This document shows positions 1,412 through 31,919 of a stretch of 39,583 nucleotides of DNA, piece after piece (within the stretch, counting starts at the first letter, position 1; each line of letters starts with the position of its first letter). The notes beneath the pieces are model-generated. The model saw only the letters and a program-made list of their open reading frames with translations, had not been told where the DNA came from and did not search any database. The DNA lies in sequence record SRR22947725_2655; one strand, written 5' to 3'. The position numbers and the translations under genes were made by a program.

Positions 1412-1884
1412 TGTCCTATTTAAAAGCTAAGCATTTGAGCGAATTAATGCTTTCAAATCAATTTACTATTGCTCTAGCAGAGTCATGTACAGGTGGCTCT
1501 TTATCGAGCTCTTTAACCTCAATTGCTGGCGCATCATCATATTTTAATTGTGGCTTTATAACTTATAGTAATGAGTCAAAGGTCAGCATGCTTGGGGTTG
1601 ATCCAAAAACAATTGAGTTATTTGGCGCTGTAAGTGAAAAAGTTGCCTTTGAAATGGCTTTTGGAGCAGGTGATAAATCTAATAGTAATCTATCCATTGC
1701 CGTTACAGGAATTGCTGGTCCATCTGGAGGCACTGCTGAAAAACCGGTAGGCATGGTCTGCTTTGGTTTTTTTATTAATGGAAGCGTTGAAACGACCACT
1801 CAATTTTTCTCTGGTGCCCGTTCAGAGATTGTCTCGCAAAGTATTGCCTTTGCATTAGAAGAGTTATCATCAAAAATCGAATGA
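1411..1884 (+). CDS. pncC: CinA C-terminal-domain protein (NMN deamidase, PncC family)
   Basis: AESCTGG, TYSN and TGIAGP motifs in a stand-alone 157 aa domain. Confidence 0.85.
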   Translation: MSYLKAKHLSELMLSNQFTIALAESCTGGSLSSSLTSIAGASSYFNCGFITYSNESKVSMLGVDPKTIELFGAVSEKVAFEMAFGAGDKSNSNLSIAVTGIAGPSGGTAEKPVGMVCFGFFINGSVETTTQFFSGARSEIVSQSIAFALEELSSKIE

Positions 1885-2858
1885 ATGCTTCAAAAGTCTC
1901 CATCGCCCCTATGATGGATTGGACCGATAAGCATTGTCGGTACTTTTATCGTCTAATCAGTAAAAATGTTCAGCTCTATACTGAAATGATAACAACAAAA
2001 GCAATCCTCAATGGAGATAAAAGTCGACTTTTAGACTTTGATGCTAGTGAAAATCCTCTCGTTCTTCAGCTTGGGGGAAGTGACCCAAAAGAGATGGCCA
2101 CGTCCTCCATGATTGCTCAAGACTGGGGTTATAACGAAGTGAATATAAACGTTGGATGCCCATCAGACAGAGTGCAATCTGGAAGTTTTGGAGCTTGTCT
2201 CATGAAAGAGCCTAATCTTGTCGCCCAGTGCGTTGAAAGTATGACTGATAAGTGTGAAATTCCTGTGACAGTAAAACATAGAATAGGGATTGATGATATG
2301 GAGAGTTACGATGAGCTTTCTGACTTTGTGTTTCAAATAAGCACTAAGGGGTGCCAGCACTTTATAGTGCATGCACGTAAAGCCTGGCTTAAAGGATTAA
2401 GCCCAAAAGAAAATCGAACGATTCCTCCACTTAATTATGGATGGGTTTATCAACTAAAGAAAGACTTCCCTTCTTTACAAATAACTATTAATGGTGGTAT
2501 TGAAAGTTGTGAGGATATAACAAAGCACCTTAGGCTTGTTGATGGCGTCATGATGGGGCGCTCAATCTATCATAATCCATATTTGCTTAAAGAGATAGAT
2601 CAAAGAATATTTGATGAAAAAAACAATTTGATAGATCGAGAGCAAGTTTTGAAAAAATATATGACCTACATTAAAAAACAAAATAAAACTGGCACCCCAA
2701 TTCGCTCTATGACTCGCCATATACTGGGCTTATATCATGGTGAAGCCAATGCTAAGTTATTCAGAAGATTATTAAGTGGACAAATTGTTGGTCTAGAACA
2801 GTTGAATGATTGGCTTGATTTTAAAAAAAATAGTTCAACTGAGATTAAAAGCTTTTAA
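1881..2858 (+). CDS. dusA: tRNA dihydrouridine(20/20a) synthase
   Basis: APMMDWTD, NINVGCPSDRV and HARKAWLKGLSPKENR motifs are typical of DusA. Confidence 0.93.
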   Translation: MNASKVSIAPMMDWTDKHCRYFYRLISKNVQLYTEMITTKAILNGDKSRLLDFDASENPLVLQLGGSDPKEMATSSMIAQDWGYNEVNINVGCPSDRVQSGSFGACLMKEPNLVAQCVESMTDKCEIPVTVKHRIGIDDMESYDELSDFVFQISTKGCQHFIVHARKAWLKGLSPKENRTIPPLNYGWVYQLKKDFPSLQITINGGIESCEDITKHLRLVDGVMMGRSIYHNPYLLKEIDQRIFDEKNNLIDREQVLKKYMTYIKKQNKTGTPIRSMTRHILGLYHGEANAKLFRRLLSGQIVGLEQLNDWLDFKKNSSTEIKSF

Positions 2859-2898: not shown

Positions 2899-4116
2899 AT
2901 GGCAGGTAATCACTTTGTAGCAAGTATCGATATTGGCACAGAAAAGATTGCTTTGCTAGTTGCTGAAAAAGATGATGATGACCACCTAAGAATAATTGGT
3001 CATAACGTTTGCTCATCTAAAGGAGTCAGAAGAGGCTCTATTTTTTCAATTGATTCTCTATCAAGACAAATTACAAAATTAATTCAACAAACTCAAGAAA
3101 GTTTTGGAGTGGATTTGGCTTTGTTCCGCGTCAATATATCTGACACTCATTTAACCTGCATTGATGGAAAGGGAAAAGTTCCTGTCAATGAATTTGTCAG
3201 CTCAGAAGATTTGGAATCAGTTCTTGAGTCTGCGATGGCCATTTCAACACCCACTAATAAGGAAAAACTTCATATCATAAAAAAGAAGTTTACGATTAAT
3301 GAGTCAGTTGTTGTAGATAATCCAATGGACATGGAGGCGCAAGTTTTAGAGTCTAAAGTTCATATTGTTACTGTATCAAGTTCAAGTGTTAGGAATGTTG
3401 AAAACTGTCTAAAACAGAGTAATCTTGAGGTTGATAAAATTGTACTCAATTCAATCGCTAAATCTCAAGCAGTTCTGACTCAAGAAGAGAAAAATGGCGG
3501 CATATGCCTCCTTGATATCGGTGCGGGCGTAACAAGCTACTCAGTATTCCAAGAAGAGGGAATAGTGCATAGTGGAATTATTAAAATGGGCGGTGATGAG
3601 GTAACTCAAGAAATTGCCTATGCTTTTGATACCTCTTTAGAGGAAGCTAAAAGACTTAAAGAAAGTTATGGCTCTGCAAAATCAATATCTCAAAGTGAAG
3701 ATCAATTTATTGATTTCACCCAAGGGTCGAAAAAACAACATCAGCTCTCGAGTCTTGATTTGTCTGAAGTTATTGAAGAGGCTTATCTAGAGATTTTTCA
3801 AGCACTGAAGAATGAACTTAAGCACCACGATCTAGATACTATCATCAAGTCAGGCTTTGTTCTTTGTGGGGGTGGCTCTGAAATTAAATCAATAGATGAA
3901 CTTGTTAGAGGTTATTTCTCTAAAAGAGTTAAAATAGGAAAAATTCAAAGATCCAGAATATCAGGTTTAGAATCTTTACTTACAGACTATAAATACACTG
4001 GAAGTATTGGTCTTCTTTTGCACGAAGGAGATTTAAGTAAGGCTAAATTTATCGTTTCTAATGGAGATAATGGAGTGATGGGTAAATTAAAGAAAGCGAT
4101 TGTAGGTAATTTCTAA
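2899..4116 (+). CDS. ftsA: Cell division protein FtsA (divergent)
   Basis: Actin-fold motifs DIGTEKI, LLDIGAGVT and VLCGGGS, a 1C insert, and a C-terminal amphipathic helix (MGKLKKAIVGNF). Confidence 0.92.
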   Translation: MAGNHFVASIDIGTEKIALLVAEKDDDDHLRIIGHNVCSSKGVRRGSIFSIDSLSRQITKLIQQTQESFGVDLALFRVNISDTHLTCIDGKGKVPVNEFVSSEDLESVLESAMAISTPTNKEKLHIIKKKFTINESVVVDNPMDMEAQVLESKVHIVTVSSSSVRNVENCLKQSNLEVDKIVLNSIAKSQAVLTQEEKNGGICLLDIGAGVTSYSVFQEEGIVHSGIIKMGGDEVTQEIAYAFDTSLEEAKRLKESYGSAKSISQSEDQFIDFTQGSKKQHQLSSLDLSEVIEEAYLEIFQALKNELKHHDLDTIIKSGFVLCGGGSEIKSIDELVRGYFSKRVKIGKIQRSRISGLESLLTDYKYTGSIGLLLHEGDLSKAKFIVSNGDNGVMGKLKKAIVGNF

Positions 4117-4119
4117 TTA

Positions 4120-5031
4120 ATGATTAAACAAAGAACAATTAAAAAAATAGTTAGAGCTCGTGGTGTTGGTATCCATAGTGGAAAGGTAGTCAATTTAACA
4201 TTGATTCCAGCTGCAGAAGATCATGGCGTTGTCTTTAAAAGATTAGATGCTGGAGGCAAGCAGGTTCATGCGCATAGTGCTTTTGTTAACGAGGTAGTTT
4301 TATCAACCGGCCTTGAAAATCAAGGCGTCAAAGTATCTACAATTGAACATTTAATGTCAGCTCTTTCGGCACTTGGCGTCGATAACTTGTTGGTCGAGCT
4401 TGATTCATTCGAAGTTCCGATTATGGACGGTTCATCTGCGCCATTTGTTTTTTTAGTTCAGTCTGCAGGAATTGAAGAGCAGGAAGCTCCAAAAAGATTT
4501 ATTGTTATTAAAGATAATGTAAGAGTTGAGAATGGTGAATCATGGGCACAAGTTTCGCCTCACAATGGTTTTAAGGTGACATTAGAAATTGATTTTGATC
4601 ACAAAAAGATAAAAGAGAGTGGGCAAAAGTTAACGATTGATTTTTCAGAGCAGTCTTACTTAAAGGAAATATCTAGAGCAAGAACATTCGGTTATGAAAG
4701 AGATGTTGAAATGCTTCAAAAACAAAATCTTGCATTAGGAGCAAGTAAAGATAATGCAATTGCTCTTTCAGATGACGACATTCTCAATGAAGATGGTATG
4801 CGTTATCATAACGAATTTGTGAAACATAAAATTTTAGATATTGTGGGAGATCTTTTCCTTTTAGGGGGTAATGTAATAGGCCACTACGAAGGCTATAGAA
4901 CAGGTCATATGCTCAATGATCAATTACTTTCAGCCATTCTTTCCCAGCCAGATGCTTTTAGTATTGAAACTTTTGAAGAAGCAGACTCTCCAATACAATT
5001 TTATTCTGAAGATTGGCAAAACGACCTTTAA
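4120..5031 (+). CDS. lpxC: UDP-3-O-acyl-N-acetylglucosamine deacetylase
   Basis: MIKQRT N-terminus, plus [17 protein letters not shown] and [10 protein letters not shown] motifs. Confidence 0.97.
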
Positions 5032-10897: not shown

Positions 10898-11305
10898 ATG
10901 CAGTCAAGAAATGATTATCTCGAAGCGCTTGGAATTCCAGACTTTTTGTACTCTAAAGTCGATTCTACTTCTAGTATTTCATCTCCACTAAGCGTCATGG
11001 TATTAGAGTTAAGTTCAAAGGACTCTTTTTGCGAAGCCGGTAAAACTCGAGATTTGCTGGTTAAAATGTTGGCTTCGATTGGCCTCGATTTGAATAGTGT
11101 TCATCTGGCTTCGATTGAAAAAAGTAATCTTGACAGTTTTATTGCCGATAATCCTGCTCAGGTTGTCTTGGTTATGGATTCAACATTTAAGTCAGATAAG
11201 TCATCTTTTTTTTCGACATACCATCCAAGAGATGTTATTAAAGACTCACATCTTAAGCGTGAAACTTGGGAAATTTTAAAAAAGGTAAAACAATGTCTCA
11301 AGTAG
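10898..11305 (+). CDS. Degenerate uracil-DNA-glycosylase-like protein, possibly DNA polymerase III psi-like
   Basis: N-terminal [10 protein letters not shown]. The segments [11 protein letters not shown] and TYHP...KRETWE resemble family-4 UDG, but the catalytic motif is missing. Confidence 0.5.
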
Positions 11306-31574: not shown

Positions 31575-31919
31575 ATGAATACAGAACAGTGCCTTAAAAT
31601 AATTCGATCAGAATCAGAAATAAGCTTTTCTGATTTTATTGAATTAATAGATAGTGAATATTGGTTCTCAAATATTGCATTTGAGAATGGCAATATCTTA
31701 AATTCAATCAACGAAAACCAAGGCTCTGCTAAAGTATTTTGTTTTGGTCGTATGCATTCACTCTCTAAACAGGAAACGCTTAAATGCTTTGGAGAGCACT
31801 ATAAATCAGTATTAGAGTCTCCTGAGGATACAAAATCCCATTTAAATATTAGAAGTTTTATTGAAAACAGTTGGAAGGGATTGTTAATTGATTACGACGC
31901 ATTAACGATCAAAAATTAA
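31575..31919 (+). CDS. HopJ-family small protein
   Basis: ENQGSAKVF, FGEHY and HLNIRSF motifs. Confidence 0.8.
   Translation: MNTEQCLKIIRSESEISFSDFIELIDSEYWFSNIAFENGNILNSINENQGSAKVFCFGRMHSLSKQETLKCFGEHYKSVLESPEDTKSHLNIRSFIENSWKGLLIDYDALTIKN

Follow-up and report, generated by a model that had tools for sequence, protein, structure and literature searches.

The textbook view of FtsA is that it anchors FtsZ to the membrane and regulates it. The ftsA gene analyzed here resides in a 39,583-nucleotide stretch of DNA (sequence record SRR22947725_2655; hereafter, the window) from a marine, Pseudothioglobus-like bacterium of the SUP05/Arctic96BD-19 family, and belongs to a lineage in which FtsZ is missing. 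Division without FtsZ is already on record in free-living SUP05 bacteria: Shah et al. (2019; PMC6509183) report it for the isolate EF1, 'Ca. Thioglobus autotrophicus', and EF1 and the SUP05 genomes treated there are like the window lineage in being of the same family, lacking FtsZ and having MreB. The term ftsA does not occur in the text of that paper, as far as it is accessible. FtsZ-independent division had been proposed for the window in a first-pass annotation made from the sequence alone; the phenomenon is real, but its novelty falls, since it was published in 2019. Relative to the accessible text of PMC6509183, the present analysis adds residue changes in FtsA, the joint loss of ZapA and a SPOR-domain protein, the location of ftsZ in the mraZ operon of basal relatives, and a phylogeny with a single loss. 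A selected FtsA without FtsZ-contact residues, the disappearance of ZapA and a DedD-like protein along with FtsZ, an earlier move of ftsZ, and the co-retention of FtsA, FtsQ and FtsW appear to be new. In the full-text literature searched (subscription journals and supplements being outside its scope), FtsA is found with Thioglobus, SUP05, Ruthia, Pseudothioglobus or Bathymodiolus in a single paper, as an incidental mention, and no pairing of FtsZ with Thioglobaceae was found.

That clam symbionts have no ftsZ has been on record since 2007 (PMC4164004, PMC6952346 and PMC1974822). 'Ca. Vesicomyosocius okutanii', of the same family as the window lineage, is reported to miss ftsZ (Kuwahara 2007, as relayed in PMC1974822), in agreement with the first-pass annotation. 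The same text lists ftsA, ftsL, ftsN and ftsX as also absent from this symbiont, whereas the window lineage keeps FtsA, FtsQ and FtsW. The retention of FtsQ, FtsL, FtsB, FtsK, FtsW and FtsI-type proteins along with MreB is reminiscent of the FtsZ-less, MreB/RodZ-organised division of the Chlamydia type, as outlined in the accessible text of PMC10591338. Unlike Chlamydia, the window clade is free-living, and keeps FtsA (over the family cut-off in 109 of the 121 genomes of the whole family) under purifying selection. Chlamydiae are not known to have FtsA. The window protein is like canonical FtsA (E. coli 7q6d; Vibrio maritimus 7q6f/7q6i) in family, predicted fold (template modelling, or TM, scores 0.86-0.91), 1C subdomain, nucleotide motifs and predicted tail helix. 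It differs because found in a lineage without FtsZ, because the equivalents of E. coli residues R300 and D242 are replaced, and because the gene is beside neither ftsQ nor ftsZ. It shares only 26-28% of its residues with the E. coli protein, and around 1C other residues stand in for several glycines that are otherwise invariant.

FtsZ was searched for in 121 genomes of the family, 73 of high quality and 42 belonging to the genus of the window. The taxonomic order of the window lineage comprises this one family only. Matches to PF00091 were found in five genomes of the family (5/73 among those of high quality) and in 0/42 of the genus; the same search was positive in 13 of 14 model genomes. No match was found in G001, the nearest genome compared (one contig, 1.7 Mb, 99% complete), which has an FtsA 95% identical to that of the window and the same gene order. 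FtsZ from the relative G017, a bona fide member of the family (TIGR00065, 334 bits vs. a cut-off of 295), retrieved nothing at E<=1 from any of four closed genomes of the window's genus. By PF00091 as by this query, therefore, no ftsZ was found in the closed sister genomes, where its presence would have told against the first-pass annotation. Pfam scans of the open reading frames (ORFs) of the window detected no FtsZ-like ORF in its 39.6 kb. The five FtsZ-positive genomes (G005, G010, G015, G017 and G028) are distributed in four genera.

The residues of FtsA thought to contact the FtsZ tail changed in the FtsZ-less members of the family. A role of R300 in FtsZ binding was reportedly described by Pichoff & Lutkenhaus in 2007. 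In a phmmer alignment of the window FtsA to the 7q6d chain, the numbering of which was counted from the printed alignment, R300 is opposite A295 and D242 opposite E238, in agreement with the substitutions read by eye in the first-pass annotation; E303 is kept as E298. R300 and D242 both fall inside the FtsA segments, 294-304 and 234-245 respectively, at which the FtsZ tail is placed in a published AlphaFold model of the E. coli proteins, said in the accessible text to agree with a 2007 genetic screen (PMC10769210). FtsA proteins from 37 FtsZ-positive genomes (32 outgroup and 5 family members) were compared with 30 FtsA proteins from FtsZ-less genomes. Arginine is found at the R300 site in 36/37 of the former (31/32 in the outgroup, 5/5 in the family) vs. 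0/30 of the latter, in which it is replaced by S (20 proteins), A (7), P, V or T (one each). Loss of the arginine and absence of ftsZ hence go together, a co-occurrence that the first-pass annotation had proposed to test, and substitutions at this site are not common in FtsZ-positive taxa. Aspartate at the D242 site is similarly found in 36/37 vs. 9/30 proteins, the remaining FtsZ-less proteins carrying E, N, A, C, R, Q or S, and an acidic residue at the E303 site in 36/37 vs. 17/30. The R300 equivalent is A in 23, S in 10 and T in 6 of 39 further loci from the genus. FtsZ of the FtsZ-positive relatives ends in a normal tail, IPAY[LMI]R.

At nine FtsA sites the FtsZ-less clade has become fixed for a different residue, the changes including A231G and, around 1C, G79N, G82D and G147A; the latter three are present in 90-97% of the 30 FtsZ-less proteins, and in 0-3% of the 37 from FtsZ-positive genomes. 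Re-fixation at nine sites points to a functional shift rather than to plain relaxation.

FtsA itself is well preserved. The window protein is recognized by TIGR01174 (314.1 bits vs. a cut-off of 175.85), PF14450 (96.3 bits) and PF02491 (55.6 bits). TIGR01174 scores exceed the cut-off in 109/121 genomes of the family, and full-length frames are found in about a hundred. The 12 genomes under the cut-off include four closed 1.0-Mb genomes without FtsA, two of genus g10 and six incomplete assemblies. The two g10 proteins (G026 and G011; loci L072 and L073) score 167 and 132 bits, and are 24-27% identical to the window FtsA; g10 is the earliest-branching FtsZ-less genus, and its FtsA, though by far the most diverged, is still encoded within a dusA-ftsA-lpxC locus. 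Scores peak in the five FtsZ-positive genomes (356-411 bits vs. 321 or less in the rest of the family). For pairs of genomes with an LpxC identity of 0.65-0.75, FtsA identity is 0.29 in FtsZ-less and 0.45 in FtsZ-positive pairs. Among close relatives within the genus (synonymous divergence, dS, below 0.8), the ratio of nonsynonymous to synonymous divergence (dN/dS) is 0.047-0.057 for ftsA, 0.050-0.092 for dusA and 0.011-0.041 for lpxC; ftsA is under strong purifying selection within the genus.

In 34 aligned sequences, the nucleotide-binding residues D11, G13, G201, G208, G324 and G325 show no variation and D206 hardly any, and retention at the nucleotide motifs in FtsZ-less FtsA is 0.97-1.00; nucleotide binding is predicted from these motifs, which the first-pass annotation had also listed as conserved. 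In an AlphaFold2 model (predicted local distance difference test score 88.9; predicted TM score 0.86) the window FtsA is predicted to fold like actin, except that subdomain 1C substitutes for 1B. The top matches of this model in Foldseek are FtsA structures, E. coli 7q6d being the best (TM 0.86/0.90, root mean square deviation 1.9), and PilM and MreB structures match less well (TM 0.52-0.63). The C-terminal tail is conserved and basic/hydrophobic in sequence; a helix is predicted at residues 395-401, at low confidence, after a low-confidence linker (residues 381-394). The membrane-targeting tail noted at first pass is to this extent kept, and membrane binding may be presumed.

The juxtaposition of ftsA and lpxC, which the first-pass annotation took as a sign of ftsZ loss, turned out to have another origin. 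The gene order on which the argument was built is indeed canonical: ftsZ directly follows ftsA in 29/29 gammaproteobacterial loci sampled outside the family (a count from which one further locus, from an unpublished genome, is omitted), and the order ftsA-ftsZ-lpxC is found in 6/8 wider gammaproteobacterial loci, the other two having no lpxC within the stretch retrieved. Within the family, lpxC is directly 3' of ftsA in 35/35 loci, including those of all five FtsZ-positive genomes, and dusA directly 5' in 31/35 (3/5 in FtsZ-positive genomes). In the FtsZ-positive genomes of all four genera, ftsZ is located between rsmH and ftsL, in the order mraZ-rsmH-ftsZ-ftsL-ftsI (loci L080-L084, L103 and L104), hundreds of kilobases away from ftsA. 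In FtsZ-less G001, G053 and G032 the order is mraZ-rsmH-ftsL-ftsI, rsmH abutting ftsL with no ftsZ remnant; in G001, ftsQ is still found after murC-murB-ddl, at the end of that cluster. Because FtsZ-positive members share the ftsA-lpxC junction, the junction is ancestral and bears no mark of a deletion, and as their ftsZ is in the mraZ operon, the gene moved first and was lost later. The first-pass suggestion that ftsZ was lost stands (0/42 genomes of the genus), with a relocation to the mraZ operon preceding the loss. A tempting inference is thereby corrected: the junction predates the loss, and ftsZ would have been excised at a site outside the window, in the mraZ operon. Between genera of the family, LpxC proteins share about 80% of their residues, FtsA proteins 34-40%.

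In a maximum-likelihood tree of LpxC rooted on six outgroups, a single marker of 303 columns with some long branches, all 30 FtsZ-less members group in a single clade (support 91/93; recovered in 89% of 200 bootstrap trees), and the four FtsZ-positive genera make up a basal grade. The tree favours a single loss of ftsZ. Two further proteins follow the same distribution. ZapA is found in 5/121 genomes, exactly the five that are FtsZ-positive, and a small SPOR-domain protein in 6/121, the same five plus G094. The G094 match (G094:C93:125-313), the sole one in an FtsZ-less genome, resides in a tiny contig of an assembly 89% complete with 2% contamination, and may be foreign DNA. The SPOR gene adjoins an ORF judged CvpA-like by eye, and in G010 a 430-residue ORF lies on the opposite side; the setting resembles the folC-dedD-cvpA arrangement of E. 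coli, and the protein has been labelled DedD-like for this reason. ZipA_C was found in 0/121 genomes, FtsZ-positive members included, and FtsX (TIGR00439) gave in 4/5 genomes weak matches in frames of 416 to 845 residues, none over the cut-off; since they are missing from FtsZ-positive members too, neither is informative on the loss.

Orphan MinC genes were detected in 68/121 family genomes, vs. MinD in 1/121, MinE in 1/5 tested and FtsZ in 5/121. The G053 protein (L146:2125-2871) may serve as an example: it scores 112 bits with TIGR01222 (cut-off 95), features both MinC_N and MinC_C domains, and is encoded between a tolA-like gene and glyS; none of the three proteins known to partner MinC is present. 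In the genus of the window MinC is found in 4/42 genomes only, and is missing in G001.

The late division proteins are retained. G001 encodes FtsQ, FtsL, FtsB, FtsW (beside MurG; TIGR02614, 344.5 bits), RodA, FtsK, MreB (484.3 bits) and MreC, and a gene for an FtsI-like class B penicillin-binding protein is found 3' of ftsL. The survey of division genes suggested in the first-pass annotation thus returned zapA in the five FtsZ-positive genomes only, zipA in none of the 121, and ftsQLB, ftsWI and mreB all present in G001. An FtsQ query matches 110/121 genomes. In the closed 1.0-Mb genomes G040, G046, G051 and G061, FtsA, FtsQ and the FtsW-class SEDS protein are all missing and the RodA-class SEDS protein is kept, the classes being assigned from the context of the genes in G001 and G032. 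This co-absence matches the gene list published for V. okutanii, as accessible in PMC1974822. FtsA, kept or lost with FtsQ and FtsW, is on this account tied to the septal rather than to the elongation set. Remnants of decay were noticed in a few genomes: G051 has an FtsW remnant with 7 stops, the sole SEDS match in G061 has an in-frame TAG, and in G066 (L063) dusA and ftsA are both broken within an otherwise conserved dusA-ftsA-lpxC locus.

The data as a whole are best explained, and in our opinion probably so, by a single loss of ftsZ in the clade and by the retention of FtsA as a membrane-bound, ATP-binding scaffold or activator of a ring-less divisome. According to this scheme, ftsZ would first have moved away from ftsA and lpxC into the mraZ operon, and would later have been lost once, together with zapA and the DedD-like SPOR gene. 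FtsA would have been kept as an actin-like, ATP-binding, membrane-tethered protein; once the ligand was gone, the residues binding the FtsZ peptide (the R300, D242 and E303 equivalents) may have drifted, and different residues may have become fixed at other surfaces, in particular near subdomain 1C. The protein would then act as a membrane-bound scaffold or activator of a divisome that has no ring, and MreB, also present, may position FtsA or division. The absence of ftsZ, the loss of the arginine and the keeping of FtsA all support the first-pass suggestion that FtsA acts without FtsZ. We infer that it has ceased to bind FtsZ-like partners of any kind. FtsA could moreover be the primary cytoskeletal organiser of cytokinesis, its actin-type membrane-bound filaments positioning and activating FtsQLB-FtsWI without a tubulin-type ring; this extension is tentative, and somewhat doubtful.

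Several observations weigh against this scheme. The correlation of the arginine with FtsZ amounts to one evolutionary contrast, not to 67 independent observations, because the loss was single. The changes in FtsA are not confined to the pocket: of 59 sites that FtsZ-positive genomes conserve in FtsA, the FtsZ-less proteins have lost about 14, spread over their whole length. Conserved sites show a retention of 0.45 within the pocket segments (n=6) vs. 0.65 elsewhere (n=53), and pocket sites have no significant excess of entropy (Mann-Whitney p=0.16, n=5 vs. 48). The hypothesis of a loss of constraint concentrated in the FtsZ-pocket segments was not supported, the difference not being significant. 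G149, an FtsZ-positive gammaproteobacterium of another family (L154) picked for its low FtsA score, has adjacent ftsA and ftsZ genes but C at the R300 site and H at the D242 site; the arginine is hence not strictly required wherever FtsZ exists. Arginines are found in this protein at positions -1 and -2 of the cysteine. No independent lineage with FtsA and without FtsZ was found among low-scoring gammaproteobacterial FtsA proteins, G127, G140, G159 and G149 having FtsZ and G143 neither protein. MinC, a known antagonist of FtsZ, is still encoded by many family members without FtsZ, which leaves room for an unrecognised target. The genome from which the window derives probably lacks ftsZ, judging from relatives with an FtsA 95-98% identical. 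A role of FtsA in division is deduced from the company it keeps. As for expression, ftsA is covered by RNA-library contigs of four studies, and those of three studies also span the ftsA-lpxC junction; they are compatible with transcription of ftsA, but may contain DNA, and hence are no proof.

Among other explanations, FtsA might have been kept for a job unrelated to division, as a membrane-bound actin-like ATPase acting in shape or envelope growth, division being the task of MreB and of the elongasome, in the manner of Chlamydia. MreB and MreC are present in G001, an MreB/S-layer-based division is proposed for SUP05 in the accessible text of PMC6509183, from which ftsA is absent, and the loss of conserved sites shows how heavily FtsA has been remodelled. 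Yet FtsA is retained along with FtsQ and FtsW, and missing with both in the four most reduced genomes, which keep the RodA-class SEDS protein, and this makes such a non-division role rather unlikely. FtsA might otherwise still tether a filament former, be it a cryptic, extremely diverged FtsZ-like protein or an unrelated substitute, at a remodelled 2B or 1C surface. New constraints are suggested by the nine re-fixed sites, and bona fide MinC outnumbers FtsZ and its own partners MinD and MinE in the family; but the 116 genomes without FtsZ contain no PF00091 candidate, and the rarity of MinC in the window's genus, with none in G001, indicates that such a partner would not be general. We hold a surviving filament partner to be improbable.

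Two further accounts fare worse against the data. Were ftsZ just located elsewhere in the window's own genome, moved and not lost, the situation would be that of the FtsZ-positive relatives, which do have ftsZ far from ftsA, and the absence from that genome is indeed deduced from relatives. Yet none of the 42 genomes of the genus has ftsZ, the four closed ones at 99% completeness included, and the window FtsA shares the derived states of FtsA in all FtsZ-less relatives; a displaced ftsZ is therefore extremely improbable. Were ftsA a decaying relic, its evolution about two times faster than in FtsZ-positive relatives at equal LpxC divergence would be accounted for, as would the broken copy in G066 and the absence from four reduced symbionts. 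A relic would hardly be expected, and we give this possibility almost no credit, to show a dN/dS of about 0.05 in the genus, full-length frames in about a hundred genomes, invariant ATP motifs, and a confident model with the fold of FtsA. Retention of FtsA as a divisome scaffold or activator is thus the explanation we prefer.

The features of the window bearing on these conclusions are listed in Table 1. The layout given in the first-pass annotation, with dusA upstream and 3 bp between the ftsA stop and the lpxC ATG, was found to be correct. The closest FtsA locus (L008) is 98% identical to the window FtsA. The genes pepN, cinA and dusA are found 5' of ftsA, lpxC, ilvB, ilvN and ilvC 3' of it, and the remaining genes are ordinary housekeeping ones. 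Two small ORFs on the plus strand may be mentioned. The first (10898-11305), of 135 residues and without Pfam match, is flanked by leuA and queH; the second (31575-31919), of 114 residues, matches the HopJ family (114 bits) and is flanked by genes for pyruvate dehydrogenase E1 and a major facilitator superfamily transporter.

Table 1. Features of the ftsA region in the window (positions refer to the 39,583-nucleotide stretch).
Feature	Position	Strand	Evidence and remarks
dusA, tRNA dihydrouridine synthase	1881..2858	+	PF01207, 283.2 bits; adjoins ftsA where ftsQ is expected
ftsA, 405 amino acids, intact	2899..4116	+	Pfam FtsA and SHS2_FTSA matches; TIGR01174, 314.1 bits; TAA stop at 4114-4116
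ftsA subdomain 1C (SHS2 insert), residues 84-158	3148..3372	+	PF02491 match
Glu238 codon GAA, equivalent of E. coli D242; FtsZ-tail pocket of subdomain 2B	3610..3612	+	alignment to 7q6d
Ala295 codon GCT, equivalent of E. coli R300	3781..3783	+	alignment to 7q6d
ftsA basic/hydrophobic C-terminal tail, preceded by a disordered linker; putative amphipathic helix for membrane targeting	4072..4113	+	alignment of C-termini, model
ftsA stop, 3-base spacer and lpxC start	4114..4122	+	sequence
lpxC, UDP-3-O-acyl-GlcNAc deacetylase, 303 amino acids	4120..5031	+	PF03331, 342.8 bits

A cultivable, free-living and ecologically dominant clade has thus dropped FtsZ, ZapA and a DedD-like protein, but kept FtsA, FtsQLB, FtsWI and FtsK. 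FtsZ-independent activities of FtsA, especially the recruitment and activation of the septal synthase, become directly testable in these bacteria, for which the FtsZ-positive sister genera, having the same gene neighbourhood, provide matched controls; G149 is a natural exception useful for gauging how strict the requirement for the arginine is. Were FtsA confirmed as the primary organiser of cytokinesis, it would have taken over in this clade the organising role held by FtsZ in nearly all other bacteria.

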